Shown in pieces: positions 15,001-56,500 of a stretch of 64,000 nt of DNA (within the stretch, counting starts at the first letter, position 1; each line of letters opens with the position of its first letter). This DNA is from Phoronis australis. Lineage: Eukaryota > Animalia > Phoronida. Below the pieces are notes generated by a model. That model did not search any database. It was not told the DNA's origin and saw only the letters and a list, made by a program, of their open reading frames with translations. The DNA lies in assembly GCA_002633005.1 (NCBI GenBank), contig NMRA01000632.1, forward strand, positions 1 through 64,000. Direction: 5' to 3'. A program made the position numbers and the translations under genes.

Positions 15001-18000
15001 TAAATGTCGGCCCCTGATTCACAAGATAAATGATTTCAGCTTTACTTCTAATTATCAGATTTGTCATGGAATGGTTTCCACAGTTTGAGTTCAATCCAAT
15101 ATGTCCTTGTTAACTTATATGTTCCATTACAATACCACATCTCCCACAGTTTTAAATTAAATTCTTTTCAAAGAAAATCAGAGGGAAGCAGACCACAACC
15201 TCAACATTGTACGTTCCCATCAAAACTGCAAGCTACATTGCCATCCATTACCTGACCTGTTTATCCATAGCCAGTTTGCTATCCATAACCTGACCTGTTT
15301 ATCTATAGCCAGTTTGCCATCCATAACCTGACCTGTTTATCCACAGCCAGTTTGCCATCCATAACCTGACCTGTTTATCAACAGGCAGTTTGCCATTCAT
15401 AACCTGACCTGTTTATCTGTAGCCAGTTTGCTATCCATAACCCGACCCGTTTATCTATAGCCAGTTTACCAATCATGACCTGACCTGTTTATCAATCGCC
15501 AGTTTGGAGCAAGCCAATATGAGACATGTGGCACAGGCCTGTTCATCACTGGACAACTGAGTGAAGTAGGCCTTAATCTCCGGCTGATCTGGACCTTGCT
15601 TCTCTAGCAACAACTGTCGCAGCTGGTCGACGGGTCTAAGCTTGGACACCAGGTGGCTCCCCTGCGCAGTGAGTAGTACAAATCTGCGGATGGGTTCCAG
15701 GTGCTGAGTCACCACCTGCGGAGGATCAGCACGACGTGCCAACGGTAGGTCACTGGGATCGATGTAAAAGTTGGTTGGCGCGGTCGGAACCTCGGCCACG
15801 GCCCAGGTGTGACCATCAATAGCGTTAGTGTTCTGTAATTAATCATACAAAATGCTTACCATTTTTCATGACGAAGAACTTAAACATAGATTATGTCCCA
15901 TGTAAAATGCTTTACTCATGGCATAAACAATTTGATGTATGTTCTGATAAACATAATTATGTACTGTATGTTCATTGAAACAAGAACTGATTGATGAAAG
16001 TACTTTCAATTCATGAAATATGACCAAATACTACACTCAGTGACTCAGTTTTACATAGAATGTCGTAGACTAGGCCCAAAAAACAAATAACAATAACAAC
16101 GAAGAACCAGTCTCCCCACAAATCCCAAACCCAAACTATTTACAGTTATCGTAGTTTTCAGAAGCTATTAACATTGACGCAAAAATTGGGAAGAAAACCA
16201 GCAAAACATTATTCGCAAATCATTGAAAATTCAAGCCAAAAATTTTCACTACAACGTTTTTGACATGATGAAAGCAATGATCCCATTGTGCTGCTTAGTA
16301 TACAAGGAATGAGCGCAAAAAACACTGTTAAGTAAAGCATGTTAAAATCAAAATTGGTCACTTACAAACACCTCCATCAAGCTCTGTTGGAAGGGGAAGG
16401 AGTCAGGACTAGTGGTCCACAAGAGGTCGCTCTCGTTAGCCTGGGAGGCAGACATTAACAGGGTACCTGGACACAATAAAAGACTCAAAGCAATTTTCAA
16501 GGAGTTGACGTATATTCAAGAAGTTAGGGAAAAGCTAGTCCCGACACCTGACTCCAGTTTAAATATTGTGTTGAATGTGATTTGCTTTTAAAAACCAAGC
16601 AGGTGAAGTAAAACTTGTTGGATCAAACATAACCACGAGATTTCATCCATGTAAGGCAAAATAGCACTTATCTAAAAGACCGAAAGCACGAATTAAAGCA
16701 AACAGTGGTTCTTTCTCAAAGAGTCTACTGACTAAAAATGGCTTAGCCCGTTTCACAAAGTCAGACTAAGGTTAAAAGTCAAAAAATCTTTCTACAACTC
16801 GAACCCAAACGACAGAAATCCATAGCCTGCTTGTGAGCAGACAAAAGGTCAAAGTCAAAAGACGAAAAATTATTATAACTTTTTGCTATATGCTCTTTGA
16901 GAAAGAGGCCCCTGGAATGCTGACTTGTCCTGAGCAAGGAAAAGATCCAACTTAATACGCATGTCTCACTTATTTGAGTTCAAGCAACCTATCATCTACA
17001 TGTCATATGTATGCAACACTGAAGATCAACATCTTTAAAGAAAATCCCAGAGGAGTTAATTATTCATCTTTGAATAACCTTGATTATGAAGGTACTGAGT
17101 TGAAGGTCACCACGTTGCGTCAATTGCCAATGTTTGCTACAAATTTCCTTTTTAAGCAAATTAAAGATTCTTCATCTTCAGACCAGCTTTTGTTATTGGN
17201 ACCAAATACTACACTCAATGACTCAGTAAAATTACCTTATATTAGATAGTTTACATAGAATGCCGTAGACTAGGCCCAAAAAACAAATAACAATAACAAC
17301 GAAGAACCAGTCTCCCCACAAATCGCAAACCCGAACTATTCAGTTATTGTAGTTTTCAGAAGCTATTAACACTGACGCAAAAAATGGGAAGAAAACCAGC
17401 AAAACATTATTCACAAATCATTGATAATTCAACCCGAAAATTTTTGCTCCAACATTTTTGACACGATGAAAGTAATGATCCCATTGTACTGCTTAGTATA
17501 CAAGAAAAGACCGCAAAAAACGCTGTTACGTAAAGCATGCTAAAATCAAAATTGGTCACTTACAAACACCTCCATCAAGCTCTGTTGGAAGGGGAAGGAG
17601 TCAGGACTAGTGGTCCACAAGAGGTCACTCTCGTTAGCCTGGGAGGCAGACATTAACAGGGTACCTGGACACAATAAAAGACTCAAAGCAATTTTCAAGG
17701 GGTTGACGTACAATCAAGAAGTTAGGGTAAAGCTAGTCCCGACACCCGACTCCAGTTTAAATATTGTGTTGAATGTGATTTGCTTTTAAAAACCAAGCAG
17801 GTGAAGTAAAACTTGTGCAAGTTGGATCAAACATAACCACGAGATTTCATCCATGTAACGCAAAATAGCACTTATCTAAAAGACCGAAAGCACGAATTAA
17901 AGCAAACAGTGGTTCTTTCTCAAAGAGTCTACTGACTAAAAATGGCTTAGCCCGTTTCACAAACTCAGACTAAGGTTAAAAGTCAAAAAATCTTTCTACA

Positions 18001-21000
18001 ACTCGAACCCAAACGACAGAAATCCATAGCCTGCTTGTGAGCAGACAAAAGGTCAAAGTCAAAAGACAAAAAATTATAATATAAAATAACTTTTTGCCAT
18101 ATGCTCTTTGAGAAAGAGGCCCCTGGAATGCTGACTTGTCCTGAGTAAGGGAAAGATCCAACTTAATACGCATGTCTCACTTATTTGAGTTCAAGCACCC
18201 TATCATCTACATGTCATATGTATGCAACACTGAAGATCAACATCTTTAAGAAAATCCCAGAGGAGTTAATTATTCATCTTTGAATAACCTTGATTATGAA
18301 GGTACTGAGTTGAAGGTCACCACGTTGCGTCAATTGCCAATGTTTGCTACAAATTTCCTTTTTAAGCAAATTAAAGATTCTTCATCTTCAGACCAGCTTT
18401 TGTTATTGGTGGAGAACAACTTCCCGCAATTCTGACGAGAAGCTTGCCAAGACACAAAGCTTACCTTTGTGATAGTGTGCCATGTGTACTTTATTCGGTC
18501 GTTGTGGTGAGGTGGTAGTAGCGAACCCTGGTGGCAGGCGTACATGAACCAGTGTCAACATGTTCGGTCGGCCACCATTGGTGTTGAATGGGTTGGTCGT
18601 GAAGTACAGGCGGACACCTGTGAATGACAAGACACACTGACACACATGACACATTCTGTTTAGAAATTGAACGTGGTAAGCATTTCTCAATGTAAGGTAA
18701 TGGATGATATTATCGACTAGTCGGCGTATTTATCCAAATACCTACAAAACTGCTGGTTGCAAGAAACAGTCCTAAATAGGTACTCAACTAAGTTTCCTAA
18801 ATCTGCATAACTATGGACAAGTGAAAACTCTGATTGTCTTTTCTTACACTGTTTTAGTTTGCTGACTAAGTCAGTTTTTGGTTATGATATAAATCGAGAG
18901 TAAACTCTCAATATTTCCTAAAATAAGTATAGACATCTTTTCATGCAATGCAATTTATGAACTAAGTCCCTATTTTTCACCGAAAAAAGGTTCAGATTTA
19001 CTTATTTATTAGAAAATGTCATTAGACAACGAGGAGCTCATAATAAAGACAAAATGATAGAAAAGGATAACAATCTATGCAGAAGATGTAGGGAACTTAG
19101 TTGGGTGCCTATTTGGGACTGCTTAATGTATCTGGGCACAGTACCCCCACTCGTTTACTTTCACATTACTGCGGTGAATAAATAGATAGATGTAAGTGTA
19201 CCCTATATCTACCCCCTCTGATCAAGGTCTGAATCTGCACTTGCAGCCTTGCAGCATACAAAATGTCAAGAAACCCCAACAGTCTACTCTAGACAAACTT
19301 GATACTTTAAATCAGATAAATTCATTTGTTAATTATCCACAGTGTATCATAAAATCCCAAACATAAGGCCATGCCTTCATGTAAGGCAACAACTTATAAT
19401 TTAGCTATAAGACTGAGGCCTTACACAAGGGATCATTACATTTTAAGTGTTCCTAAAAATACACAATTTCCTCTCTAAGGTGATGACTTAACTTGACAAA
19501 ACATGCTGTAACATATTTGTTTTAATTGTAAAGTTTATTTTTCCTGAAGTGGTTTTAGCCAACCAAAATTATTAATCATCTTTGGCTGCAAGCCATTGTG
19601 GTAATGGCCGGAGGATAAAAAGCACAAGAAAAATAAAGACTAGCAGCTTTGCATCCAAATAAACAGTATAGATTTGTGTACAAACTAAGGGTTGTTCCAG
19701 CAAAAAATGTATGGGGGGAGGCACTTTTATTTTGTACCCACCGCCTATATTTTTCATTTATTTCTCCAACCCATTACCCATAATTTTTTAATTAATAGGA
19801 ATTGAAACATAAAATCCAACACTTGCAAACAAATTGCCTCCAGGATGACGTGTTAAGAAATTAGATGATTGACAGACAAGAACTAGTTGTCTTGTCCAAT
19901 ATTGTCAAAAACTAAAATAGCCAAGAGAGTGGTCGAATCAAAACCAAAATGACTTTTGTCAACGCATCCATCCCTGCTATATATTTTGTGCCAAATTTCC
20001 AGTTGTGCCCAGCACTTTTTGAGATAATGAACCTGTCTTGTCAAAAACTAACGGGGTGCCACAGTAGTTGAATCCAGTGTCAAAAACATGACTGGTGCCG
20101 GCATATTCTTGCGATATACTTCTATTTTGAATTTCACCATGATCAGTGAAGCTGTTTTGAGATAACATACAAGGAATGGCTTGTCGAAAACTAAAGCAGC
20201 CAACATGGGGTACCAAGCTTGCCAAATCCGTCCAGAAATTGACTGGTGCAGGCGCATCCTTGCCAAGTACCTCTATACCAAATTTCATCATGATCCGCCA
20301 AGCGGTTCTTGAGATAATTGATGGACAAGAAATGATAATGACAGACGGACGGACCATAAAGTTTTTGTGGGTGCAGAAAAATTCCATGTGAGATCACAAC
20401 TCATATCAGTTATCAGAAACATGCTTTTCAAAGACACCTGTGAGCAATACTTTTGACAGCCACCAGGTGTCTCTGTTCACCATGTGTCTGTAATGTCAAT
20501 AAGATTTTTTCAATTTCATGGATCTATGGATCTCTAACTGTCTCCACGAACACTTTTAGATTACTATGTCAAGTTAACATTGGAGCATGTCTATCTTACT
20601 CCTCATACTTTTTATTTAAAAATCATCAATTTTCTTATACGTGTTAACACCAGTTTAGTGTAACAGTTGCAGAAATTTTCATTCTAATATGACTGCAGTA
20701 CAACATCTCCTTGTAATCAAGTTGCCCATGACTTGAGTAATGGCGTAGTGTACATATTGCACTCTTTACACTGGCAACATAGGATTGTTTTAGTGTTTCC
20801 GGATATGTTTGGGTATTTGTCAAGTGAGTTTTGGTGAGTTTTTGATTTCTTTTGAGATGTGATTGGCTGAAAATATCAACCTGTTGAACATTTTACAGAT
20901 CAAGAAATACCACAGAGTTCTAATGCTTTACTTCTTACAAGAACGACCACCCATAATTTGAGTTTTTTTTTGAAGATCACCACCCATGAATTTTTATTTC

Positions 21001-28510: not shown

Positions 28511-31500
28511 TTTTGCTAAAACCATAAATAGAAATATACCCTGCTTTGTAGCTATTTTTGAGGTAAAAATATTAATAAGAACATGTTACTCTGTCACATT
28601 CTGAAAACTTTCATAAATTTATTAATTTTCAATTTTATTCTTTAGAAAGTGGTGATTTAAAACTATTTTTTGATAAAGTTTACATTTTCAGATTTGTATA
28701 AATTTGCTGGGTGCTACAACTTTAAAGTAGGTCAAGTAACAAGTAGCCTAAGGATAAAAGCATACAGCAGGTCTAAGTGTTACAGTGCACGCTGATCAAG
28801 GTCTTCCAATAGTAGAACTGTTGGTATCGTGAGTACTTTTGGCAATGCTTCTGGTAATTACAAAATTCAAATTTCGGTGCCGCCTGATTATGTCGTCTGC
28901 TTGCACATTAGCAGCATAATTATCAGACAGTTTGTGATTTCTGGTTCACATACTCAGACATACTGACACTAACTCAGTAACTGAGAAAACTACAAAAGCA
29001 TGTGCACAAATTCTAAGGAGTAGGCCTACTTGTGAATGCAAAAGATACTTATCTAACTTTTTTGTTTTTAGAAAATTATTAATTTTGTTCGGATTAAAAA
29101 ATGCGCCTCTGCAACGATTTCACGGGTTTAACCTGTGTATGTTTATAATTTAACATTCTCAAGTGAGCAGTGAGTAAGACTGTTAAGTGGCCCTTAAAAG
29201 GGCTGTTGCCGCTGTTGGTTGTACTGTGCATGAGCCTCAGGTATAGCGTGAAATGGTTCTTAAAAGAACTGTTGAATAATTCAACATAAATCACACAGTA
29301 TACCGTGTTCTATCAAGTAGGACTTACTGAAGGTGCTCTTCATTTAAGTTTTCATCTGGGAATTAAGGTTGGATGAAAACACAGAAGATGACAATATCGA
29401 TGACAGTTGTTACACCTTAAAGACATAGTCTCACACCAAAACAACTGCTTTTCAACACAAAAAATAACACTGTGTGAATCTGTTGCACAGGGCAGTTCTT
29501 GTCCACACAGCTTGGTTAAGGAGAAAAGCCCAGCAGTAATGACCTTATCCAACTTCAGCCGAGTCAATTCTGAGAACAGACATATGTGGTTACATAACCG
29601 TCTGTGATGTCAGACCAGGGAGACAGCTGAGTATTGCAATGGCTATAGGCAGTTAACCCTCCAAAATTTTGCTTGCTTCATATGATAATTCATGTCAATT
29701 CCATTTGTTGGCATAACTAGATTGTTTTTTTGCCAATCAGATGTAAAGACCAGTGTATCACAGATAATAAAGCCTAATACAAAATATTACAGTTTTCATT
29801 TTTTCATTTTAAGCAGTGAGTAGGAAGGATGTCACCTTTTAATTTAACTACATATATAATTGAAATTTGAGTGGATATGGCAATCTCAATGACAGAATTA
29901 CAAGAACACTTGAAATGGAAGTCTTCTGAACTTGGTTTCATAAATTAATGTGTTCATCTATTGAATTAATAATAAACCCAAGGCATCAAGAAATATTACC
30001 TGAAGATAACAGTGAACATATTATTTCAGGCGTTCATTATGGCAAGCTAATTCTACCGTGCTTTGGTCACTGAGTCAAAGAAATCAATGAACAAATCAGA
30101 GGACGGTTAATGATTTAATCCACAGTTCAAGTTAAAATCAAGTGCTTTCAGTCGGAATTTTATATTTGGTTTCTATAGTGAAAGACATTCAAGGTAGTTG
30201 AAGATTATATCTACACTACATAAGTCAAAACTGATTCATCTCAGTGTACAGTAAAGTTGATATGTAAGTCAAAATGATCTAATCTTTTACCAAAATAAAT
30301 AACTTAGAATGTACAGTACTTTAGAACATTTTATGGATTACAGACGTTATCCAACATCACGACAAATTTACATGATATGAAAGTGGAAATACCTAACTAT
30401 TACCATGGCGACCAGGTATTTCCTTACATTAGAATTCGACAAGCATGATTTGAAAAAATAAGAAGTTGCACGGAAAAAGGATTGGAGATTGGAAGCTTCA
30501 CAATCCAACATGGCCGATTACTCTAATTAAGAGCCTTTACATTTTGGGCCTTGATAACTTGAATTAAGAAAGCAAAAAGTTACAAAGGATGTACGTGTCA
30601 GTATGAAAAGAATGATTCGTATGTAAAATTTAGAAAAATATGAATTATGTTGTGACACATAATCAAACCTTGAAGCGTGATTGACTTTCAAAGTAAAAAC
30701 AATTTCAAAACTTTTTCAGCTATTTTTTAAGCTGAGTGTATGGTTAGCTGAATGGGATATTCACACTGCAATAATTAGAATATTCCTCATATTTTTTGCA
30801 CAAAAACCTAAACATTGTGCAAATTTGCTTTTTTGTAGCAGCTTTCATCAAAATGTATCAAAGTTAAAACTTCACCAAGTACAAAATAGCCGATTGAACA
30901 TGCACTTCAGTTCAGCATAAATCACCATGTTTTCGATGCTGCCGGAAATGAGACTAAGTCCAACGGGAATTGTGAGCACTTTTATCACTCAATAAGTAAC
31001 ATTTACTTGGCTGAAATCCAATCGAAAACTATTGAATCGCTCAGAATAGTAGCTATAGATCTTTCTCACTAAATTTCATTGTGAATTATTGGTGAAGATA
31101 ATTTTTACACGGTTTTAAACTCGTAACTTATGCCGCTGTTGTCCAATATGGCCGACCTGATCCAAACAAATGACCCAAATTTTGCCACCAAAATTTCAAT
31201 AAATGTGCACTGCTTAACCCGATTTTGATAATTTTTATTGAGTGGGATGCATTATCTTTCCGATTATATTGAAGTATTTTTGCAAATCGAAAAAAAAATT
31301 GGTTGGACAACCCTACTCTTACCGTTCATTCAGTCTAGCTACATGTAGCGATCGACTAGACTATAAAATTCAATGGAATGCAATGACAGGTAACGAGCAT
31401 CAAGCTATTCAGCACATCCACCTACAAACACTTACCGGTATGTTGCAAAAACTGTAATTCAAAAGAAAAACAATACACTGGCTACTTCTAGCACTAATCC

Positions 31501-31685
31501 TTTCTGACTGTGTCCGTCGATGCTATCCGCTATTTTGAATGTTAGGTTGTCAGTACTAGCTCAAGGTTCACTAGCTTTTGGAAAGCGACGGCATGTACCA
31601 TTTCGAATACTTTCTAAAAGTTCACTCATCCTGGTTTACAACTTAACCCGGATCACAGGCTGTCGCTCTAGAAGCGGTCCATACA

Positions 31686-31848
31686 AAATATGTTCGCTAC
31701 ATACTACCAAAAACGGCGACGCTCCACTCGTGGACTTCACAAAATCTTTTCACTTGCGATGCAGTCTTGGATCAGTGGGAAACTTGTGCAAAGGTACGCC
31801 CGCCCTTGGTGTATTGCCACAGTTTCCAACTACATAACGGCCAGGCAT
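31686..31848 (-). pseudogene. Decayed THAP (C2CH zinc-finger) domain, probably a DNA-transposon relic
   Basis: Reads MPGRYVVGNCGNTPRAGVPLHKFPTDPRLHRK*KDFVKSTSGASPFLVVCSEH; the conserved Trp is replaced by TGA. Confidence 0.7.
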
Positions 31849-32460
31849 TCTTCTTAAAATATTTACTCCAGTTTAAATCTAAAAATCCGTCTGCATTTGA
31901 AAAAAGTGCTCCTCTTGGCACAGAGCAATGGACACTGTGGACTCAGTCAGGCTGACTCTGCAATGATTGGATCACCTCCCTTCTAACTACTGTAAAATGT
32001 TTATGGCAACACACCAGACCAAGAGAATTAATGGGCAAAAGTTGCATAATAAACCGATTCTAATAAACAGAAAGATTACATTTGTGCCAGATAGTCCCAG
32101 TACAAACCTATGGAAAGACTCGGCAGTAATGGGGTCAGGTTCCTGGTGTGATGTGTTTCCGAAGATAGCCGAAGTTGAAAATTTTCTGTTCTCAAAATTT
32201 TGTGGGGAAGTGACTCTACAAAAGGGTGAATATCAAGACTTCGTGATAGAAAGTCCTACATTTATGTCGTATCCACTCACTATGGGTGGGTATCGTAATT
32301 TTCCAGTTGTACCCCTTACCAAAATATTAGTTGAGTACCCACGGGCTGAGACGACCTTCAATTCATGATATTGTGGGCAGTTGGAGCAAGGATTTTGTGG
32401 TTACAGTGGAACTGTCCTGCTGTATTTCTAACAAAGTGCCCCTTTAACTGTTTTCAGAAA

Positions 32461-32651
32461 ATGAAACGAGTCTGTGTGGTGGGAGCGGGTATTTCTGGAT
32501 TGTCGACAGCGGTGAGGATCCAGGAAAAACTAGGGGCTAATGTTGAGGTGACTATTCTGTCGGAGCAGTTCTCTCCTCACACGACCGGGGATGGAGCTGC
32601 GGGTATCATTGAGCTTCATGCTGTAAAGGACACAAGAAGTGAATTGATAAA
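32461..32651 (+). CDS. Second copy of oxidase coding exon 1 (probably the alternative haplotype)
   Basis: Same peptide as 35550-35740 with only synonymous differences; lies inside the 29265-32855 / 32857-35944 duplication joined by a single N. Confidence 0.75.
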
Positions 32652-34758
32652 GTAAGTCTTACCATAACAACTCTTACCATAGCAACCCTTACCATGTCAA
32701 CCCTTGGTAAATTTCTGATAGTTTACCACACACTTTAATTGGTATTGCCCTTTGTCTTGGAGTTAAGAAAACCCATTGTTACACTGGACTCATTTATGAA
32801 GTGTGGGGCTGATTCTAGGAACTATCTTGGAAAATACCACATCCATGGACACTCCNAGAACCGTTGAATAATTCAACATAAATCACACAGTATACCGTGC
32901 TCTATCAAGTAGGCCTACTGAAGGTGCTCTTCATTTAAGTTTTCATCGGGGAATTAAGGTTGGATGAAAACACAGAAGATGACAATATCGATGACAGTTG
33001 TAACACCTTAAAGACATAGTCTCACACCAAAACAACTGCTCTTCAACACAAATAATAACACTTTGTGAATCTGTTGCACAGGGCAGTTCTTGTCCACACA
33101 GCTTGGTTAATTAGAAAAGCCCAGCAGTAATGGGCATATGTGGTTACATAACCGTCTGTGATGTCAGACCAGGGAGACAGCTGCGTATTGCAATGGCTAT
33201 AGGCAGTTAACCCTCCAAAATTTTTGCTTGCTTCATATGATAATTCCTGTCAATTCCATTTGTTGGCATAACTAAATTGTTTTTGCCAACGAGATGTTTT
33301 CATTTTTTCATTTTAAGAGTGAGTAGGAAGGATGTCACCTTTTAATTTAACCACATATATAATTGAAATTTGAGTGGATATGGCAATCTCAATGACAGAA
33401 TTACAAGAACACTTGAAATGGAAGTCTTCTGAACTTGTTTTTTTATAAATTTATTTGTTAATCTATTGAAATAATAATAAACCCAAGGCATCAAGAAATA
33501 TTACCTGAAGATAACAGTGAACATATTATTTCAGGCGTTCATTATGGCAAGCTAATTCTACCGTGCTTTGGTCACTGAGTAACAGAAATCAAAGAACAAC
33601 TCAGAGGACGGTTATGATTTAATCCACAGTTCAAATTAAAATCAAGTGCTTTCAGTCGGAATTTTATATTTGGTTTCTATAGTGAATAACATTCAAAGTA
33701 GTTGAAGATTATATCTACACTACATAAGTCAAAACTGACTCATCTCAATATAGTAAAGTTGATATGTAAGTCAAAATGATCTAATCTTTTACTATAATAA
33801 ATAACTTAGAATGTACAGTACTTTAGAACATTTTATGGATTACAGACGTTATCCAACATCACGACAAATTTACATGATATGAAAGTGGATATGCCTAACT
33901 ATTACCATGGCGACCAGGTATTTCCTTACATTAGAATTTGACAAGCATGATTTGAAAAAATAAGAAGTTGCATGGAAAAAGGATTGGAGGCTGGAAGCTT
34001 CACAATCCAACATGGCCGATTACTCAAATTAAGTCCAACGGGAATTGTGAGCACTTTTATAACTCAATAAGTAACATTTACTTGGCTGAAATCCAATCGA
34101 AAACTATTGAATTGCTCAGAATAGTAGCTATAGATATTTCTCAGTAAATTTCATCGTGAATTATTGGTGAAAATAATTTATACACGGTTTTAAACTCGTA
34201 ACTTATGCCGCTGTTGTCCAATATGGCCGACCTGATCCAAACAAATGACCCAAATTTTGCCACCAAATTTCAATAAATGTGCACTGCTTAACCCGATTTT
34301 GATAATTTTTATTGAGTGGGATGCATTATCTTTCCGATTATATTGGAAGTATTTTTGCAAATTGAAAAAAAAATTGGTTGGACAACCCTACTCTTACTGT
34401 TCATTCAGTCTAGCTACATGTAGCGATCGACTAGACTAAAATTCAATGGAATGCAACAACAGGTAACGAGCATCAAGCTATTCAGCACATCCACCTACAA
34501 ACACTTACCGGTATGTTGCAAAAACTGTAATTCAAAAGAAAAGCAATCCACTAGCTACTTCTAGCACTAATCCTTTCTGACTGTGTCCGTCGATGGTATC
34601 CGCTATTTTGAATGTTAGGTTGTCAGTACTAGCTCAAGGTTCACTAGCTTTTGGAAAGCGACGACATGTACCATTTCGAATACTTTCTAAAAGTTCACTC
34701 ATCCTGGTTTACAACTTAACCCGGATCACAGGCTGTCGTTCTAGAAGCGGTCCATACA

Positions 34759-34921
34759 AAATATGTTCGCTACATACCATCAAAAACGGCGACGCTCCAC
34801 TCGTGGACTTCACAAAATCTTTTCACGTGCGATGCAGTCTTGGATCATTGGGAAACTTATGCAAAGATTCGCCCGCCCTTGGTGTATTGCCACAGCCTCC
34901 AACTACACAACGGTCAGGCAT
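34759..34921 (-). pseudogene. Second copy of the THAP relic
   Basis: Reads MPDRCVVGGCGNTPRAGESLHKFPNDPRLHRT*KDFVKSTSGASPFLMVCSEH, retaining C-x4-C, LHKFP and VCSEH. Confidence 0.75.
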
Positions 34922-35549
34922 TCTTCTTCAAATATTTACTCCAGTTTAAATCTAAAAATCCATCTACATTTGAAAAAAGTGATCCTCTTGGCACAGAGCA
35001 ATGGACACTGTGGACTCAGGCTGACTCTGCAATGATTGGATCACCTCTCTTCTAACTACTGTAAAATGTTTATGGCAACACACGAGACCATGTGCATATG
35101 TATCACATTTCAGAGAATTAATGGGCAAAAGTTGCATAATAAACCATTCTAATAAACAGAAAGATTACATTTGTGCCAGATAATCCCAGTACAAACCTAT
35201 GGACAGATTCGGCAGTAATGAGGTCAGGTTTCTGGTGTGATGTGTTTCCGAAGATAGCCGAAGTTGAAAATTTTCTGTTCTCAAAATTTTGTGGGGAAGT
35301 GACCCTACAAAAGGGTGAATATTAAGACTTTGTGATAGAAAGTCCTACATTTATTTCGTATCCACTCACTATGGGTGGGTATCGTAATTTTCCAGTTGTA
35401 CCCCTCACCAAAATATTAGTTGAGTACCCACGGGCTGAGACAACCTTCAATTCATGATATTGTAGGCAGTTGGAGCAAGGATTTTGTGGTTACAGTGGAA
35501 CTGTCCTGCTGTATTTCTAACAAAGTGCCCCTTTAACTGTTTTCAGAAA

Positions 35550-38500
35550 ATGAAACGAGTCTGTGTGGTGGGAGCGGGTATATCTGGATTGTCGACAGCG
35601 GTGAGGATCCAGGAAAAACTAGGGGCTAATGTTGAGGTGACCATTCTGTCGGAGCAGTTCTCTCCTCACACGACCGGGGATGGAGCTGCGGGTATCATTG
35701 AGCTTCATGCTGTAAAGGACACAAGAAGTGAATTGATAAAGTAAGTCTTACCATAACAACTCTTACCATAGCAACCCTTACCATGTCAACCCTTGGTAAA
35801 TTTCTGATAGTTTACCACACACTTTAATTGGTATTGCCCTTTGTCTTGGAGTTAAGAAAACCCATTGTTACACTGGACTCATTTATGAAGTGTGGGGCTG
35901 ATTCTAGGAACTATCTTGGAAAATACCACATCCATGGACACTCCTCAAATTTATCCAACTTTTTTGCTGTCGGATAAGTAGCAGTAAAACTTCACTGGGA
36001 TTGGATGGTCGACTTAATGCAGTCGAGAAAAACTTGAAGGTACAAGCAAATAACACGGGAACCTTCACTGGTGCAAAATGAGGCTAGAGAATTGTGTGAC
36101 TGATGTTGGCAACACGTTGTTGGGAAATAACACGTGACTGTCCTATTACCAGTCTATCATCACTAGGGTGAAAAAGCTTGCATGTGTGATGACCAGCTTA
36201 ATTTCCTTGTACTGGACATTGTTTGCTAGGACTGCACACTTTTCCGTGAGTCACCCACTGCCAGTTGTATTTGTCTACATAATAGGAAAGGGCAAAATTA
36301 TTGATTAATTGGAATTCTGAACTACAGACTTTACAAGAGAGTGTTGCCGCCAAAACTTCTTAGTTCAGCACCACCTGATTTATACGGTAAAATCTCAGCA
36401 ATTTCGGACAAAAAGAATTGCCAAAATTCCCCTTTTCCATTGTTCAAGGTCTTCTAACATTGTTGGTAATTCCCACATTATTTTGAATATTGTTTGGTGA
36501 TAAAGCTGCGGTACAGAACTTGAACATGAACTTGTGTAAACTATTAAATTTTATTTCTCATTTGGAAAATCACAAAGTTAAATACAATTATATTTACATA
36601 CTATAAAATGATGATTGATTAAATTCATGTAGACACTGTTTTACGCAGGTCTTACTTTCTGGAAAGAAGATTTTATTGATAGTATTTTGTACAAAGTTTT
36701 CTTTACAACGTATATCAGGAGATGGCTCAAAGAAACGTTTGACCATTGTCATGAGCTGTACAACAGTGAGCTGAGTCGGGAAGCTGGAGTGTGTTCTACG
36801 TCTGCCTATATGGTGGAGAGGCAGAAAACGGTGAGTATTAAAGTTTCTGTTTGTGCCATGGCATCCTCTGGCTGATCAAAATTCGACCCAAGAGTCAATA
36901 CTTACTACTCGAAATAGTCGTGATTTTTATTAGAAAAAAATTGTTGATAATTTGTTTGTTGAAAATCGGCAAAATTTAGAAGCAAACTTTTCTGGCTACG
37001 GAGTTTCCGCCATAAGTTTGATGAACTCGTTTGCAATTCTTGTTAGGTGTATGCACATTGTATTGAATTTCTGTCTGTCGAGTTCAGTACCATAAGTTTG
37101 GGGGTTTTGTCCACCATGCCTGGTTGTCAGACATTTTTCCATAACCATTGAATTTTTTCTTAAAAAACATTAAAACAAAGCACTGATAAAAATGAGCTAA
37201 CATACTAAGTGTTCAAATGGTAACTTACAACATAATCTCGTGAATCTTATTAGTCTGTTTGAGCCAGTGAGTGACGAATGACAAAGAAATTTTCAGTTAA
37301 TTAACGTATCTCGACAAGAGAGATTGCTAGTAAAAGTCAAAATGAATATTATTTTGAGAAATTGTCAACTTTGGCAAAAGTGCTTTTCAAAATGCACAAG
37401 ATATGCAGCATTTTATTGCCACCTCATATCACTACAGAAACGGTAAAAAACGTAGCAAATAATTAATATGTAAAGAAATGTATTGGTTGATATATATGGG
37501 TTGTGATGTGGTGTACCGTAATACCTCATATATAAGGCTATGGCCCTATATTCGAGAATGGAAGCATATACGATACCAAATGCCTTATAGTCGGGATAAT
37601 AATTGCATTTTAAATTTTTCCAAAATACAGCACAGTGTCATCAAAAATGTATTGCTGATATCCCATGTTAAGTCCTCCAATGACTCACAGCCAGCTGTAA
37701 CCTAATTCATTCTCGACCCGTGCTCCAGTATGTGCGATCTTTGTTCTAGATCATATGATTGGAAGTGAATACGGTAATAACTGATTTTTTTAATTCATCC
37801 AAAACTCAAAACAGCTGACGGGCACTTTGGACCATAGATTGCATCCAATCTCCAAGAACAGTAAAATTATTTCATGCAAGGACTTCTAGTCTTGCAGCAG
37901 TATCCTTTAAAACATGGCACATTCCTTATTATTGTGGGCTTTTTCAGGACCCCCTTTACAGGGATTTTCTCTTCGACTACAGATGGTTACCAAAAGACGA
38001 AGCCCATCGACACTTCCCACAGCTTAGCGATAAAAATGTGTGAGTTGGTGCTAATTGAAAATATAGCAGACTCTTGTTATCTTGTTTTTCCCAATTAATC
38101 CTTTCATACTAAATATAGTATTTTGACCACGTAAAGTATCACACTGTTGAACGTAATCACCACCTAATCTTCGCAAGGACTTCTGGTCATGCAGCAATAT
38201 CCTTTTTCAGCATTATGTCGAGTTGTGACTGGGGTGTAATAAGCACGTTATCATAAGCTTCAAACCGGTTTTCTTTTATGATCAGATCATTGTGTTTGAT
38301 GACTGATGAATGGAAATGAGATGGTGATAGAGCTGCCTATACTGCTTCCCGACAATAGATTGATTTAATGTCTACATAATGTTTGCTCATTGGATCTCGG
38401 ATCGTGGTCAGCCAAGTGTTATGGACCTATTCGTATTCTACACACTTATAGAGCCTAAAAATCACCATGCACGGGGCTTCAAATGTTATGGAATTTTAGC

Positions 38501-47900: not shown

Positions 47901-48412
47901 AGCATTACTTTGTGTCAGAGACCTGGATAGGAAAGTCGTTTTGTTAATAGGCTCAAACCAGGTTTGGTATCCTTTTAAAATGCAGTCGTGTAAAATGAGC
48001 TGTTAAACCAATGTTGCAACACGGGATGCATGTATTGTAGAGAATGTGTGAAAATTTAGTTTATAGTACAGTGTATATTGTTAAATGGATCAGGAGGCAA
48101 TACCCATCCAGACAAACTTGCGGATCAAAAACACCCAACTGCAGGTTATATTCCATTTTGTAAACACAGATATTTATTTTATTTTTTTTTATAAATACAA
48201 CCACTCCTGAAATATTCATAATAATCCAGTAACAGAGGATTAATTGGTTTTGAAAGTTGGATGGAAGTCATTGTCAATATCAGTATTCTGTTTATAGTTT
48301 TTGAAGTTGTTACAGACTGAAATAAAACTAGGCAAATGTAATATGGAAAAACTTTAATATTCATTGAATAGTATTCCGGAAGAAATTTGTTTCTTTTTAA
48401 TAGACTTCTGAA

Positions 48413-50135
48413 TCACTTTTCCCATGGTTTCTTTGGTCTCTTCATCTCAGACTCAGACACAGACAAATTTGTTGCCTGCACGTTCAGTTTGAGTAAACCA
48501 GGAATTTCTGCTCCCTCTTGCACTAGTCTCATTACGTCTACAAACGATGTTGGATACTGTGGTTGAGTCTCGTCAACATCAACACAGTCGTTTGCTGAGG
48601 TAGGGATCTGCGAAGCAGACGGTTCTATACTAGTGCACATGTCCTGTGACAGACAAGCCGTTGCGGCCTGTCCTGGATCCACGACAGAAGAGTCTGTGTT
48701 GGAGCCTTCGGGCTCGCCTGTAGATGGATTTTGAGAGCGCTTCCATGAGATGTACGTTTCTAAAGTGAGAGGTTGAAAATGCCTACAAACAAAAAACGAA
48801 TTCCAGTTAATTTTTTAAACTCACTGGTAAACGTCTAAAATTGTCTTCCACACTCAACACGACATTGAAAAGATCAACTTAGAAAATGGCACTAATGTGA
48901 TGTTGAGATAAATTTTCACTATGAGCAAGAAATTAAACAGTTGAGTGATATAAAATTTGAACTTTTGAGAAACAAAATACATTTTAGTGTACTGTACACA
49001 ATTCAGTAAATTGAATAATGAACCATAAAATCACCTGAAATAAGGTACTTAAAAATAATATTGCTGGCGATTTCAGAATTTCAGACACAAAAAATCCTTT
49101 TCCATTCCAACTGCCCATAGAAGATCTATCTAATGTACAGTCATGCATGTATCGATGCTTTGTTCAAAGTTTCAATAAACAATCTAGTTTCAAAGAAATA
49201 ACCGAAAAATTAGTCATGGATCTCCAACAAATATAAAAATATGAAGGCAACAAACTGTTGCAGAACCTTTTTGATTTAAGATGAAACCACCAAGCGACAT
49301 TGTTGAGAATTCGTCTTGTTGACCTCATTTTCAGCCTCTTGACCTTTGCTCAATGAGTAAACACTGAACTAATTGCCATATTCTAAATAAGAGTATTTCA
49401 CTCAGGTTTTGAGTGACATCACGAATAATTAAAACTGAAGTTATGATTAGCCAGTAATAATAAATGAGATTTTCCCTGTTCACATAATACCTAGTTATTG
49501 CACTTACTCTTCTCACATCGTTTTAGTCAACAAAGTGCCAAACAGTAATTTTGTTGCCCAACTGTGCCGGCAAAGTTCAAAATTATCAATAACTTTATTG
49601 TAAGACATAAAGATAGTGGACAACCTTCAGTAGGCACTTGAGATCCCATTTGGTGTGTTGAGCAACTAAAAGTTGAAGTCGCTTTCACTGACTGAAGGTC
49701 GGGCAGAAGTCACCACAGGTAATTTAAGGTCATAGTTGGCAAGCTAGTATTCACCAAATCAATAACAGCATTCAAGTCGGCAGGCAACAAATGGGAATTT
49801 CAAAATGACTAACACATTAATTCTAATATCAAGCAATTTTTATAAAAATTGGCATTTCCAGTCAATTGCCATTCAATAATTCTATTTTTGCAATTTTTAA
49901 GTATCTGTTAACTATTTTTGAAACCAACATTTTCTCCTGTGAGAACTTTCCCCTTATCAACTTACTTCGAGTAATAAAACAGCTTAGCACTAAATAACTG
50001 TTTCTCCACTTCAGTACAATCACTAAGCCTCTCTTTGATTTTATTCCAGCCATGTTGAAACACAGTGTCCTTATCGAAGTCGTAGTTATCAAAGTGGACA
50101 CAGATGTCTTTGAACGCATTATTATCCTCCTCCAT
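48413..50135 (-). CDS. PEX39: PEX39 / C6orf226 homolog (PTS2 peroxisomal import factor), 179 aa, 2 exons
   Basis: Exon 49966-50135 reads MEEDNNAFKDICVHFDNYDFDKDTVFQHGWNKIKERLSDCTEVEKQLFSAKLFYYS, with a gtaagt donor. Exon 48413-48782 reads HFQPLTLETYISWK...YPTSFVDVMRLVQEGAEIPGLLKLNVQATNLSVSESEMKRPKKPWEK*. The N-terminal FDxYDF...AKLFYY block and the C-terminal SF..VM.LVQ.G..IPG...KPWE block are the hallmarks I recall for the C6orf226/YJR012C family. AATAAA on the minus strand at about 48172-48185. Confidence 0.88.
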
Positions 50136-50226
50136 GATTTCAAACTTTTAAAAATGTCTCTATCTTCAATTCAAATCCTTCTAAAACTGTTGTAAATGTT
50201 CGTGAGTCACTGCTTATTAAGTCAGT

Positions 50227-52689
50227 CTACTCTTTCTGCAGTGCCTCTTTATAACGCTTGATGTAGATTTCTCGTTCACTTTCTGGAGGCATGTATGGCT
50301 TCAATCTCTGGCGACGCCTTTCTCTGGTCACACTAGCCTGCAAAAGAGCTTTTACCATGAGAGAGGGAGTTACTTCTAAATACTGTGAATGACAGCATTC
50401 CATGATTACCACTGTACTCAACATTAATTTCAGAGAGAACACTGCACAATCATGAGTTTAACACTGAACTGGAGTGGTACACTCTTTCAAGGAAACTGTA
50501 GGCATCAGTCCCAGTTGTCAATCGCTTTAAAGCAGTGAAAGTGAATTATACAAGCTTTGGACTACAGATACAAAAATGATGCACTGTACTGGTTTCAGAA
50601 AATCTTTTCTCTGTACAATCTTCAGACTATGATTAAAAGTGCCTCACCCCAGTTGTGAAATACATTACCCAAAAGTCTTTGCAGTTACGATAGTTTTGGA
50701 AATACTTTGAACACTTGTCACGGTCGTAGTCATGATCACCTAGACATTTATATGCCATTTCCTGCTCCTGCAAAAAAGTAGAAATACATAATCACCCGTC
50801 TACTTCAAACCCACTGAGAAAGCCATATTAAAACAAAGCCAACACTTAAAAGATTTGTTCAAGAGCACACAAACAACACACACATGATGTCACAAACAAC
50901 ACACATGATTTCACAAACAACACACACATGATTTCACAAACAACACACATGATTTCACAAACAACACACACATGATTTCACATCCACAGGCGAAAACAAC
51001 GTAATAATGGCCAGCTGCCAATTTGGGCAACTGAACAAACGAGTATTCGAAAAAAATAAAGTTTGACTGAGGAAGTACTGAGTATTAGTTCAAACTGGGA
51101 ACAGTTCATGATATCAACTGCCTCCTAAAGTCCAACTTTTGACCCAGGGCAACTGACACGGAGCAGCTTGATCGGTGTCACTAGCAATTTCATTAACTGT
51201 GACAAGATGGAAGTTGTACGCTGGAGAGTGGAATGCACATGCGCAGGTTTTCAAGTAGCGGGAGCTGCAGACAGAGAGGCCGTATGTAGGACATTGCACA
51301 AGCACAGTAGAGATGATCCTTTCCGCCTTGCCCCAGTTTCACGTTTAGACAATAATTGACACGGAGCAAGATGTTCAAGCGCAATTTGCCCCACCTCACA
51401 AACAGGTTGCAAAAGTTGTCACCGCGGTGTCAGTTTACTCCGTGTCAGTCCCGTTTACACACTGGAACATCCCGTTCTGAGTCAGCTGAACCGTGTCAAC
51501 TTTTGTAGTGTAAACGGCACTTAAGATGTCCCTCTACACACAAAATGACAAAACGTATTTATAGCAACATGATTTAATCAGTGTTTGGCATAATTCACGA
51601 AAAAGCTTCCAGCGTATGGAAGGACTGTGGGATGTTCACTGTCTCTACTGGGACCAGCTTAGACAGTGGTACTGTCTAGCTGTACCAAACTCACACTGCG
51701 AGTCAGTTTGAGGCCCTGGTTAAACAAGCCTAACTGATCCATAAGTAAGGCAAATTTGGAGTGAACATGTTCTGTTTCCTCGAGCATATAATGACCCGTC
51801 TGTCAGAGCACTCACGTTTCAAAGAACTCATGGCATACCTCCAGGAGCAGCTCACTAGTCCCAAAGTGCACACGTCCAAAGGACTACTAATAAAGTCGAG
51901 TCGTACAACATTAAAATGCATTTTTGTCGGCATTCTATGGAACTCAGTGAAACTATCGTGTGCATCAAGTCAATGGCCAGATACCTCAATTTGAGGATTT
52001 TGACAAATGGCAAAATTCACTCAAGTGACTCAAGTTTGTGCAAGTTTAACGAGCCCTCCCTAATTCGCAAACAACAACGATACTATTCACTTTATTTTCC
52101 CTCATGGCGAAAGCTTCTGGCAGTGCACTTTCAGACTACAGCCATGTAACCCCAGTAAATACTTATTTACAGAGGGTTGACGTGTCTATGAAACCTAGAC
52201 ATAACACGTCTGTACATAAGTTATTGATGCAACTAGAGAGTGACCGCCGTCTCGACTGGCCTTTGAGATATGACGTCATACCAGATGCCTCGTAGTGTTA
52301 AAAAAGATCAGTCGCCAATTTGGACAATTGAGCGAAATATTCCTGGAAACAAAGTTTGAGTACAGGAGCATTCCTTCGAGTTGGAAGGATTCAAGACATC
52401 GACGACCTCCGGCGTAAGGTGTCCCTCTATGCGCAATGATACAACAGGTATATTTTTCGCTTAGTGACTGAGGTTCTAATTAGTGTGAGGCATTCGCCCA
52501 AAAGCTTCCGGCGTATGAAGCGCCTATAAAAGCTTCACCGTCACAAAGGCCGGTCGAGACGGTGGTCACTGTCGGCTGTACCTTCACACAAGGATTCTTA
52601 TCGGGATGTAGGACGACATTGGATCGTGTAATTCTCGTTTGCTCCTTCTCCGTCTCAGTCTCGGGGCTTTTCTTAAAACCTCCGAACAT
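50227..52689 (-). CDS. CHCHD7: Twin CX9C mitochondrial intermembrane-space protein CHCHD7 / COX23, 105 aa, 3 exons
   Basis: Exons: 52582-52689 (MFGGFKK...HPDKNPCVK), 50669-50767 (EQEMAYKCLGDHDYDRDKCSKYFQNYRNCKDFW), 50227-50337 (ASVTRERRRQRLKPYMPPESERE...KE*). There are two exact CX9C motifs and the NPC...YDR.C..YF..Y.NC..FW...RR...KP.MP...ER pattern of CHCHD7. All splice phases are 0. Confidence 0.93.
50868..50982. repeat. 21-23-bp minisatellite, 5 copies, in CHCHD7 intron
   Basis: acaaacaacacacacatgatttc. Confidence 0.9.
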
Positions 52690-52949
52690 TACGCAGCTCC
52701 TGAAAATCAAATCTATCCCGAAACCTTTGCATGGGTACCGAAAAAGCACTTTCAGTAAGCTAGAACGGACCGCTTCTTCCCCTCATTTCTGAACCTTCTC
52801 TTCTTTTCAAAACGAGGCTGCACGGAAGGGGTTTCCCAGCATCTGGTGGAGCTGTGTCAGCGAAGGCAGAGATGTCTGGCAGAGACCATGGCTCATTGGC
52901 AAAGACCGTAGAAACGTCTTAGGTGAAAGATTGCAATAATTACCAATAG

Positions 52950-53520
52950 GTTTGGCAAAAGAGCCTCACATCAAATAAACGTTCTAAGAAGAATTGGACA
53001 CCACCTAACGACTTTATCATAAACGGTATCCTAATTGCCATTTTTCATCATGATTCTTCATCCTTTCAAATTTCAACTATTGTCCCCTCTCATGGCATTT
53101 TTGCTCGAAAGAAAATACACTCAAACTAAAAATACTTCTACTCAGAGCCCTACGTTTTGTTAACAACGACGACGACGACGTACGAACAACTAAGCCTACA
53201 AACCACCCCTTCATCTATACTACGCAGACTTGTCGACTTATTGCAATAGAAGTATTTAAAATCCTTTATGGCGAATCACCCAAGACACTTCTTTCACTTT
53301 TAAAGAAGCACGAAAACAATTACTCCTTTCGCTACAGCAATATTCTACATATTCCTCAAGTTGATCTGTCAAATATCAGTGGTAAAAAATCTTTTTCCTG
53401 CTCAGCTCGGGTCTGGAACAGTCTAAAGAATACTGGCCGGTATATTGCGCACAACAGAGTCTTTCTGATTCGGACCTGGACTGGCCCCGAATGCAGCGGT
53501 TCTCTTTGTAAACACTCCAG
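52950..53520 (+). mobile_element. CR1/L2-group LINE ORF2 3' fragment (decayed)
   Basis: Fragmented translation gives KRASHQINVLRRIG, FILSNFNYCPLSWHFC, RALRFV, RLIAIEVFKILYGESP, GKKSFSCSARVWNSL and TWTGPECSGSLC, which are typical post-RT motifs. Frameshifts are present. Confidence 0.8.
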
Positions 53521-56500
53521 GTTATGTTGTAATTAGTGTATACCATCTTTTCTTTTATGATTTATCTCACGTGTACCTCAGTATTATCCGGTTTATTCTC
53601 ATTAAACCCTAGTATATACTTTAGCGATTACGACAACATAACTTGTATTTACAACTATATCTCTGTGTTATTCTCCTGCTTAATTTTCATTTTCTTCATG
53701 TTTTTGTTAAATTTAATGTCGTAGAAATAGCTGGCTAATGTTAATGTGAATCAAAGGCAAAAATTACATCATGAAACATAAAAATAACCCTTTATAAGCC
53801 ACTATATAGGAGCACTTGAAACACACTTTCTCGTGCAAAATCAGATGATGACAAGTAATAAAATAAAAGAGAAAGTAGAAAACAGCAAAGGAAATTAAGA
53901 TTTCAATTTTGATCTCAGAACACCACTACATTAATGATTTTTTTTTCTAGAACTTCCACACAAAATATGGAGGTTTCAAGGAGAGTGCTGATCAATTCCT
54001 TGCAAGTACGTTCGTAAACCCAAACATAACTTTATTGCAGAGTCTGAAGCAATATGAAGGATTAAAGTACGCAAGAACAAAAACAAAAAGGTCACTAGAT
54101 TCGGATCTAGAATAATAAGAAGCATGGTCTATGTAATAGTCGATCGGATCCCCAATTTTACCTCTAAACTTGGTAAAACAATTCAATCAGACATCATTGT
54201 GGTTTCGTTGTGCTCCATAAGAGTTGATCTTTCGACCACAAATACTAATATTCATTTGCATCGATTCATTAACCAGGAGCACAAATATCAGAGACATTAT
54301 CAGCTTGGAAATTGGTTTGAGAAGCAGTCACTCAGGTTTCAGTAAAAACGGATGTTATTTCGTGGAAAATAGATATCTTTTCCAAGGTCGTATTTAAGAA
54401 GAATTTAAAATAAAAATGTATGTGTATTTTAGAAAAAACCTATTCCCAAGGAACACAACAATACACACATCTCGACGATAGGTAAATTTCAAACGAGTTT
54501 GGCAGTAAAATGAGTGACCCATCTATCCGTCTAGGCCTACTTCGAGAAACGTAATCCAAGCAAGCAACAACCCAAAGATCAAAATCGACCAATTACTGAA
54601 TACAATATTTGTATAGCATTTGCGTTCTCTCATTTGCAGCACCATAATAACGACCGAGAGCAAACCATACAATATCAGCATCAACTGCGAAAGACCAACA
54701 GAAGACTATGTATTAGCGACATTTCAAAGAGGGACTATATTATAAAAATAAACCTGATAGTAGATGAAGAGAAAGAAGATAATTAAAACAGTGCTCCCCT
54801 GGGCACATGTTTTAAAACACAATTAACAAAAATGCAAGATTTTAGTCAACTTACAGCCAGTCGGGTGACTGGCATGACTTCTTATTTGAGTTGCCTTCGG
54901 GGTTTCTTTTAGTGTTACCACTTTAATTACAGTAAGTCTGCTGGTCACAATTTTTTGAAAAAGGGCACACTTTTTATCATCAGGTGCGCCCGAAGGCCAC
55001 AGCTAGATTCAAACCCGGGGGTCAGGAATATCCCTGAAGCAGTCTTGCGTTCTGAAACCATCCCGAAGTCATCCAGTGATTGATTACGTTAATAGATACA
55101 AGCAAAGCATCAATTCCACATTCCTGTCTGACCCACAACCCTTTATTCTTCCTTCACACTCAACACCAGTATGACCTGTGGTTCCACCATCGACAATTGC
55201 AGTGATTGGTGTGCCCAGTACTCTTGTATTCACAGCCTCAACCTTTTTACCAATAGGCACCATTCAGGTGGACATTGAAATTACATGTTTTATATTCCTA
55301 GTGCATTGTATCTCAGAAATGGCTCACTGGATTCATTCGAATCTTGCTTTCTGGGTTGAATGCTCATACCGAGATTCAGTACTACGGTGAAGTATGTGTT
55401 TCTTCATTGATAAAATGTCCTCTCAAATGTCTTGAGTTAAATAAGGTGTCATTGTGAAATACGACTGTTAGCAGTAGTTGTCCAAAATATTTTCAAAAGA
55501 ACTCCGGAATCGAGAAATTGTGTTAAAACCCTGCAGTATTTTGTTAGTGTTAACTGAGAAACAATCTTTAAAATACAACAATTTGAAGCTGAGTGAATCG
55601 CTTCCAGATTTCTTGAAGCTCACCCATTTCCAAAGTTAAGACTGGGTGGCATTTCCAAGATCTGCAATAATATGTACAATCTGGCCCGTCGTATACTGCA
55701 CGTGAATTAGCGGGCATTGATTGGCAGTGGAGAAAATGTACCTTCCGGCAGGGAAACACCACAGCTGAAATAACCAATTTTTACCAGGCATGTTGCCAAA
55801 CACGCCTAGTGGAACTGAAAATTTCAAATAACCAAAAATTAATTGACTAGGTAACCATATCATTCGTAGACTGCCTTCGTGAATATCAGATTTATAAACA
55901 CTGACATTCGTAACTGTTGTGTATCTTACTTTGTCAAATAAAGTAGAAACTCCATGAACTACGCAGTGAAACGAACAGAATTGAACTGAACACTGAACTG
56001 ATTTATTCTACATATCATAACAATATATATACACACAACTACATAACAACATATGATGCGTTACCTATGACACACTTCCTATACTAGGAATCGCATGACA
56101 TAATACCAATTAAACTACTAAACTCATAAACAATAACAACCTACAAACATCCTGTTATTGTGTGACTAAGTACACAACAGTAACATTTATAGACAATGAC
56201 ACTGTTACACTTTTATAGACATTGACATTCGTAACACGCGTTAGAGTACAGGCTATTGGGGTTGCATCAATTTGTAAATGTGTAATTGGCTCAGTTCCTC
56301 ATTGCACTGCTTACCAAGATGGTATGCCGATTAGGTTTGAGTACCTGTCGAAGATGTATGCATAATTCTGTTTTTCATTTCTGTTCAACCATAGATAATA
56401 GTCTATGTTTCAACTTGGACACAGAGGACAATTCCATTATTTTAAGAAAAATACATTGCAAGTAGGCCTATCATTTTTTTTAATTTTAGCACCAACAGAA

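Follow-up and report, generated by a model that had tools for sequence, protein, structure and literature searches.

The 64,000-nucleotide (nt) stretch of Phoronis australis DNA analyzed here (contig NMRA01000632.1, positions 1–64,000; hereafter, the window) raises the question of whether two adjacent genes, CHCHD7 and PEX39, are expressed through a single mRNA. The minus strand of the window contains two intact spliced open reading frames (ORFs): ORF1, which encodes a CHCHD7 ortholog of 105 amino acids (aa), and ORF2, which encodes a PEX39 ortholog of 179 aa. ORF1 starts with the ATG at 52689, and its coding exons (52689–52582, 50767–50669, and 50337–50227) end with a TAG at 50229–50227. ORF2 starts with the ATG at 50135 and consists of two exons (50135–49966 and 48782–48413). 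The introns of both ORFs are all of the GT-AG type. The gap between the ORF1 stop codon and the ORF2 ATG is 91 nt with a frame offset of 1, and readthrough of ORF1 would meet a TGA directly 5′ of the ORF2 ATG. These coordinates, the strand, and the out-of-frame gap, as placed in a preliminary description of the locus, were re-derived from the sequence. We favor, with moderate confidence, the interpretation that CHCHD7 and PEX39 form one transcription unit, the spliced mRNA of which would be bicistronic and carry both reading frames.

The unusual feature of this arrangement is the short distance between the two ORFs. Twenty intron spans of the neighboring nucleoporin gene, some of which include unlisted exons, have a median length of approximately 880 nt, and the closest exon-like stretch upstream of ORF1 ends approximately 1.9 kb before it; the preliminary description was thus right in calling the gap small on the scale of introns and intergenic distances. 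The spacer (50136–50226) contains no AUG, AATAAA, credible splice acceptor, or unusual structure. The absence of ATG and AATAAA, which had been put forward in favor of a joint transcript, is true but weak when taken alone, since ATG is missing from 16% of the window's 91-mers, and AATAAA and ATTAAA from 88%. The ATG-free stretch before ORF2 is 154 nt long in total, and 4.8% of the 154-mers in the window are likewise free of ATG.

The splice signals around the spacer were scored using matrices derived from 24 acceptors and 27 donors, mostly from the nucleoporin gene, that were picked by eye for matching phase; the spliced runs proved free of stops. The acceptor matrix was built on cis-spliced introns, and acceptor 50337 (11.6 bits) was itself in the training set. 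Real acceptors scored a leave-one-out median of approximately 8.4 bits, with two of the 24 at 1.5 bits or less. None of the 10 AGs in the spacer, including that of the stop codon, is a credible acceptor (best score, 1.5 bits). The only strong acceptor upstream of the PEX39 ATG, that at 50337, marks the start of the last CHCHD7 exon, and all donor candidates inside 50337–49966 ahead of the donor at 49966 (9.5 bits) score 4.0 bits or less. Because of this sole strong acceptor and the lack of an internal donor, the segment 50337–49966 reads as one exon common to the 3′ end of CHCHD7 and the 5′ end of PEX39, and the shared-exon layout proposed earlier is borne out by the scoring. Its 5′ part (50227–50337) would comprise the last 36 codons of CHCHD7 and the TAG, with one weak in-frame AUG and a TATAAA at 50253, and its 3′ part (49966–50135) the start and N-terminal region of PEX39. 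A leader trans-spliced in the gap is unlikely because the spacer lacks an acceptor, and the term "operon-like", in the trans-splicing sense, is disfavored for the same reason. Neither the window spacer (z = −0.99) nor that of the related locus described below (z = −1.52) is better folded than shuffled sequences, and nothing points to a structured internal entry element.

The 5′ end of the unit appears to lie upstream of CHCHD7. A splice acceptor at 52699, 10 nt 5′ of the CHCHD7 ATG (8.0 bits, 98th percentile of AGs), opens the first coding exon (52582–52699) and implies an upstream non-coding exon. The earlier inventory contained both ORFs, but missed this acceptor as well as five further AUGs inside ORF1. 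A CpG-rich patch (52250–53300) likely represents the shared promoter and 5′ end, and candidate donors for the non-coding exon are found at 52944, 52970, and 53280. The observed/expected CpG ratio upstream of CHCHD7 is 1.04 in 52500–53300 and 0.96 in 52250–52999, compared with 0.60 overall and 0.54 in the nucleoporin gene body. The ratio is 0.39–0.49 near the PEX39 start (0.39 over 49666–50668), resembling a gene body. The nucleoporin, D-amino-acid-oxidase (DAO), and CHCHD7 genes each have a 600-nt patch with a ratio of 0.97–1.22 within 1.5 kb upstream of the ATG; the maximum upstream of PEX39, 0.73, equals the median of random spans. The contrast lends modest support to a single promoter at CHCHD7, modest because 28% of 151 random spans reach 0.9. 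A 160-codon frame without Pfam support (53054–53533, plus strand), which we presume to resemble the end of a long interspersed nuclear element (LINE) reverse transcriptase, overlaps the likely promoter and adds to its CpG count.

At the 3′ end, two overlapping AATAAA hexamers at 48183 and 48178 (48173–48183), 230 nt 3′ of the PEX39 stop codon, are the likely poly(A) signal of the unit. These had been listed earlier, but the same list missed an AATAAA at 50045 in PEX39 exon 1, the TATAAA at 50253, and an AATAAG at 50218 inside the spacer; a further AATAAA is present at 49599. The AATAAA at 50045 falls on Asn-Lys codons, and the TATAAA at 50253 lies inside the CHCHD7 ORF, 118 nt before the PEX39 ATG.

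Conservation of the adjacency in related genomes had been suggested as a check. When metagenome contigs were scanned once with an alignment of PEX39, three loci (L001–L003) were confirmed among 196 pattern matches. L002 and L003 extend upstream only to the last PEX39 exon or barely past it, and the gene order is readable at L001 alone. In this contig (6030 nt, 49% GC), CHCHD7 is located directly upstream of PEX39 on the same strand, so that the adjacency was found in the one informative locus. CHCHD7 exon 2 of L001 (1510–1620) has the same phase-0 boundaries as that of the window, and the last exon, homologous to the 5′ part of the shared exon, starts at 2076 and ends with a TAG at 2250–2252. 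The CHCHD7 sequences of the two loci share 40% identity over 62 aa (E = 1.9e-13), and the best PDB match of the L001 protein is human CHCHD7 (2LQT, E = 0.011). The PEX39 sequences share 27% identity over 203 columns and have a phase-2 intron in common. This low protein identity indicates that the animal-like L001 organism is distant from the window animal. A candidate PEX39 start in L001, an in-frame ATG in a strong context (A at −3, G at +4), is located 82 nt past the CHCHD7 stop codon and would be followed by four codons and a donor at 2346 that connects in frame to the next PEX39 exon (2860). On this contig, AATAAA first occurs 123 nt 3′ of the PEX39 stop codon; no AATAAA or ATTAAA precedes the PEX39 3′ untranslated region (UTR), and neither AATAAA nor TATAAA is present between the CHCHD7 stop codon and the next PEX39 exon. 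With the same adjacency in L001, it is very unlikely that the arrangement is an assembly artefact or due to chance, and we conclude that the close linkage of CHCHD7 and PEX39 is real and, judging from the two sequences, apparently old.

Some additional features of these loci were observed. The spacer DNA of L001 showed marginal likeness to that of the window (p ~0.015–0.018 under one scoring scheme) with no gap-free motif, and was not counted as evidence. In L001, the stretch 1408–1509 contains an ATG and a likely first cysteine (1417) in frame with exon 2 across 84 nt, and this 84-nt stretch has no canonical donor where the Cx9C spacing would be restored. The same spliced gene stands tail to tail with PEX39 in L001 (3870–4830, minus strand) and L003 (700–2260, minus strand) and is absent from the window; we take it to be NDUFS6-like by its motifs, which would place PEX39 there between two likely mitochondrial genes. 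No window gene other than CHCHD7 and PEX39 matched L001–L003.

The identities of the two genes, as assigned in the preliminary description, are backed by Pfam, PDB, and HMMER comparisons. In ORF1, Cys34/44 and Cys55/65 form a twin Cx9C motif, of which the first cysteine is encoded by the first coding exon and the other three by exon 2 (50669–50767), the CHCH core. Exon 2 matches Pfam CHCH above the family cut-off (E = 3.7e-6), and its closest solved structure is human CHCHD7 (PDB 2LQT, E = 1.4e-8), the sole other match having an E-value of 0.93. No homolog of this exon was returned by the word-index protein search with the longer query, which is weak evidence. These matches support the assignment of ORF1 as a CHCHD7/COX23 ortholog. 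Members of this family are imported into the mitochondrial intermembrane space in a MIA40-dependent manner, and the ORF1 product is predicted to be an intermembrane-space protein. An alternative donor at 50648, 21 nt past the exon 2 donor and in frame, scores higher (9.2 versus 5.9 bits) and would add seven residues.

The second exon of ORF2 (48413–48782), which ends with the stop codon, matches Pfam KPWE_dom (E = 2.9e-15) and has a C-terminal (R/K)PWE motif. A full HMMER scan with this exon yielded 117 proteins, 19 of which also match the N-terminal region encoded by exon 1 at E < 0.01, and the alignment of the relatives continues across the splice junction between the two exons. The named relatives are from Lingula, Potamilus, Batillaria, Branchiostoma, Saccoglossus, Ptychodera, and Antedon, together with a fish "C6orf226 homolog". 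Neither exon matches Pex14_N or any other Pfam family besides KPWE_dom. According to PMC12339391, PEX39, described in 2025, has an (R/K)PWE motif ending its DUF5572/KPWE domain, stands alone in opisthokonts, has an extra region in invertebrates, and is absent from flies; outside opisthokonts, PEX39-like domains occur as fusions with PEX14. The protein binds PEX7 and aids import through the peroxisomal targeting signal type 2 (PTS2). Its overexpression blocks PTS2 import in human cells (PMC12339391). The comparisons support ORF2 as PEX39 (C6orf226/Yjr012c) in the stand-alone opisthokont form, neither a PEX14 fusion nor PEX13; we infer that its N-terminal region is the region "X" of the PEX39 paper, and presume the same putative role in PEX7 binding and PTS2 import.

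In a 32-row PEX39 tree, the window sequence falls into no supported group, and L001 and L003 group together at 97/95. The alignment of the N-terminal region was too variable for scanning. Word-index protein searches with exon 1 (longer) and exon 2 (near) found nothing, which is weak evidence; exon 1 retrieved only unrelated bacterial clusters in the Atlas, and scans of prokaryote genomes and viral contigs gave no relative among 43 and 31 pattern matches, respectively. The PEX39 models of Ptychodera (P0006), Saccoglossus (P0010/P0120), and Antedon (P0086/P0121) share an N-terminal extension of approximately 130–290 aa that matches no Pfam family and does not resemble CHCHD7; it may be a real fusion or a merged upstream gene.

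On the bicistronic interpretation, a promoter at approximately 52.3–53.3 kb would drive one transcript, in which a non-coding exon would be spliced to 52699–52582, 50767–50669, the shared exon 50337–49966, and 48782 onward, ending near 48160. ORF1 would be translated into the mitochondrial intermembrane-space protein. ORF2 output would be lower and would depend on ribosomes resuming their scanning past the ORF1 stop codon and then reaching the strong PEX39 AUG. The start context of ORF1 (G at −3 and T at +4) is weaker than that of ORF2 (A at −3 and G at +4), although the difference is modest. In the fully spliced mRNA model, six AUGs precede the PEX39 AUG, namely the ORF1 start, two in-frame internal AUGs, and three out-of-frame AUGs opening ORFs of 11, 3, and 24 codons. 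By an alternative route, ribosomes might leak past the moderate ORF1 start, translate one of these short internal ORFs, and then resume scanning. The ORF1 stop codon is located 261 nt upstream of the next exon junction. Reinitiation is reported to displace exon junction complexes (PMC10275272), and translation of ORF2 may clear this junction and spare the mRNA from nonsense-mediated decay. The intact and conserved state of both ORFs suggests that both are translated, whichever mRNA carries them.

Several observations weigh against a bicistronic mRNA. ORF1 shows no depletion of out-of-frame AUGs (3 versus 2.15 expected; P(≤3) = 0.88 in 20,000 synonymous recodings), and for this reason pure leaky scanning, as in green algae, fits poorly. 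Reinitiation declines with the length of an upstream ORF (uORF), here 105 codons, although the mean length of conserved fly uORFs is 70 aa (PMC2276209). We consider reinitiation plausible for ORF2. The AATAAA at 50045 could terminate a CHCHD7-only mRNA. In L001, the PEX39 start is ambiguous, since the donor of the 82-nt model, 2346, scores 4.9 bits versus 7.2 bits for the competing donor at 2290; the spacer contains two AUGs; an acceptor belonging to the next PEX39 exon lies 607 nt past the CHCHD7 stop codon; the region around PEX39 shows no CpG contrast; and canonical splicing could not be reconstructed for the first CHCHD7 exon. In addition, the conservation rests on two genomes, and linkage can be maintained in the absence of a shared mRNA.

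The main rival to the bicistronic mRNA is a single promoter with two isoforms. In this case, PEX39 mRNA would arise by splicing of the non-coding first exon to 50337, skipping the first two CHCHD7 coding exons, and CHCHD7 would be made from the full form, perhaps ending at the AATAAA at 50045. The non-coding exon implied by acceptor 52699 is in keeping with such splicing, and the CpG and acceptor results fit equally well. In the shared exon alone, the PEX39 AUG would be preceded by a single weak AUG (21 codons), allowing efficient translation of PEX39, and FlyBase records monocistronic isoforms produced by alternative splicing at such loci (PMC4528330). However, the AATAAA at 50045 falls on codons, as noted above, and is absent from L001, and the homologous L001 exon has five AUGs before the candidate start, so that skipping helps less there. 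We regard the two-isoform arrangement as possible but unlikely.

More doubtful is the existence of two independent overlapping units. PEX39 would then be transcribed from a site of its own in the spacer, an intron, or the final CHCHD7 exon, and CHCHD7 would be polyadenylated in PEX39 exon 1 or the next intron. The TATAAA at 50253 and the AATAAAs at 50045 and 49599 could serve such units, but 11% and 15% of 200-mers contain TATAAA and AATAAA, respectively, and the hexamers at 50253 and 50045 both fall on codons and have no counterpart in the matching L001 gap. The approximately 600 nt between the CHCHD7 stop codon and the next PEX39 acceptor in L001, which show no CpG depletion, would suit a separate PEX39 start; the corresponding region of the window is, by contrast, as poor in CpG as a gene body.

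An operon of the nematode type, with cleavage of the pre-mRNA and addition of a spliced leader in front of PEX39 by trans-splicing, is quite improbable. The 91-nt gap resembles what we take to be the spacing in nematode operons, and all three ordinary genes of the window have a strong acceptor 3–16 nt before the ATG (27304, 32458/35547, and 52699), as trans-spliced genes would; these acceptors may reflect 5′ UTR introns or hint at leader trans-splicing. On the other hand, both an acceptor and a canonical poly(A) signal are missing from the spacer, the AGs of the L001 spacer score 4.0 bits at most, and ordinary donors are present upstream of the three 5′ acceptors. An Rfam scan of the window found nothing, which says little about the whole genome. 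A single fusion protein produced by readthrough, frameshift, or hidden splicing is hardly credible: long N-terminal extensions of some deuterostome PEX39 models and PEX14 fusions outside opisthokonts offer precedents, but the two ORFs are in different frames and separated by stops, the shared exon has no adequate donor before 49966, and none of 128 KPWE proteins matches the CHCHD7 profile (best E = 1.5).

Bicistronic mRNA, the interpretation we favor, has precedents in other organisms. FlyBase annotates 159 dicistronic pairs in Drosophila (2.5% of genes), 82% of which join unrelated genes, and the gaps at loci with a joint transcript only range from −34 to 319 nt (PMC4528330). Among fly loci, an upstream ORF of the twin-Cx9C type is found repeatedly (CG9865, CG30290/Ppcdc, and CG9288; PMC2276209, PMC4528330). 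As in Phoronis, a short twin-Cx9C ORF precedes an unrelated ORF by tens of nucleotides, with separate stop and start codons. These loci differ in their members, in being backed by cDNA, and in occurring in animals without PEX39; in addition, both ORFs are multi-exon here and meet in an internal exon. The name "CHCHD7" does not occur in the searched supplements of the fly papers. In plants, arthropods, and nematodes, CHCH uORFs of "group 8", of which CHCHD7-like proteins are the closest clade, are stably joined upstream of three unrelated ORFs, for which the authors propose transcriptional fusion (PMC2075485). They form a distinct clade of 51–74 aa, whereas the upstream ORF here is a 105-aa CHCHD7 ortholog with a peroxin partner.

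Another parallel is the Ccdc56-mtTFB1 locus of Drosophila. Ccdc56 is COA3, a small cytochrome c oxidase assembly factor, and the products of both genes are mitochondrial, whereas the second product would be peroxisomal in Phoronis. The locus is listed as exclusively dicistronic, with an 88-nt gap (PMC4528330, File S1). Green-algal bicistronic loci resemble CHCHD7–PEX39 in their out-of-frame ORFs, gap below 100 nt, stronger ORF2 context, and canonical poly(A) signal after ORF2 (PMC7896298, PMC11291117), but have few AUGs before ORF2 (PMC11291117), a depletion not seen here. The spliced-leader operons of nematodes and Hydra likewise consist of closely spaced same-strand genes with one promoter. 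Such operons need an acceptor in the intergenic gap, whereas the CHCHD7–PEX39 gap has no credible one.

The features used to define bicistronic loci are spanning transcripts, a start site at the upstream gene only, poly(A) at the downstream gene only, and translation of both ORFs (PMC7896298, Table 1). The CpG proxy agrees with an upstream-only start site. As for poly(A), neither spacer has a signal, and signals are confined to the downstream end in L001; the window has the AATAAAs at 50045 and 49599 beside those at 48183/48178. No defining feature is refuted, and by its anatomy the locus is a candidate member of the bicistronic class. The arrangement is known but uncommon, and the pair itself is apparently new: no description of CHCHD7–PEX39 (C6orf226) as bicistronic was found in the literature searched, which lay mostly outside subscription journals and did not include bioRxiv supplements, and the word "bicistronic" is absent from the PEX39 paper (PMC12339391).

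The rest of the window contains two further ordinary genes. The Nucleoporin_N gene (1–27304, minus strand), presumably NUP155, stands head to head with the DAO-family gene (32458 to approximately 42100, plus strand), which is tail to tail with PEX39 at a distance of approximately 6 kb and has no match in L001–L003. The DAO family is peroxisomal. Tandem duplications with 95–96% identity at 29265–35944 and 16050–18409, each meeting at a single N (32856 and 17200, respectively), repeat the first coding exon of the DAO-family gene and a nucleoporin exon, respectively, and probably represent two haplotypes joined in the assembly. Upstream of CHCHD7, small exon-like segments at 54594–55959 (minus strand), with a TAA near 54594 and an AATAAA near 54035, gave only a weak DUF7702 match below the cut-off, and a trial splice of them broke the frame.

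An old transcriptional fusion that joined two housekeeping genes is the most likely origin of the pairing, rather than a designed link between organelles. The preliminary description proposed that the mRNA couples mitochondrial and peroxisomal biogenesis; nothing specific supports this proposal, and the published twin-Cx9C upstream ORFs precede unrelated, lineage-specific partners. A stronger version, in which an obligate ancient bicistronic mRNA was kept across deeply diverged invertebrates, CHCHD7 translation sets the dose of the PTS2 factor and thereby ties peroxisomal to mitochondrial biogenesis at the level of translation, and vertebrates later split the pair, appears improbable to us; the human genes are presumably unlinked. 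If the transcripts prove separate, the conserved close linkage would remain, and would be of modest interest. Annotation of only one ORF may lose CHCHD7 or PEX39 in invertebrate genomes and distort maps of the presence and absence of the PTS2 pathway. If the bicistronic mRNA is real, the locus would be a natural test of how ribosomes reach a second ORF after a first ORF of 105 codons and of how such an mRNA escapes decay. A multi-intron bicistronic locus kept between distant animals would also extend the class beyond the well-studied flies and algae. Furthermore, the dose of PEX39 matters, as the block of PTS2 import upon its overexpression indicates, and second place on a joint mRNA would offer an easy means of keeping this dose low.

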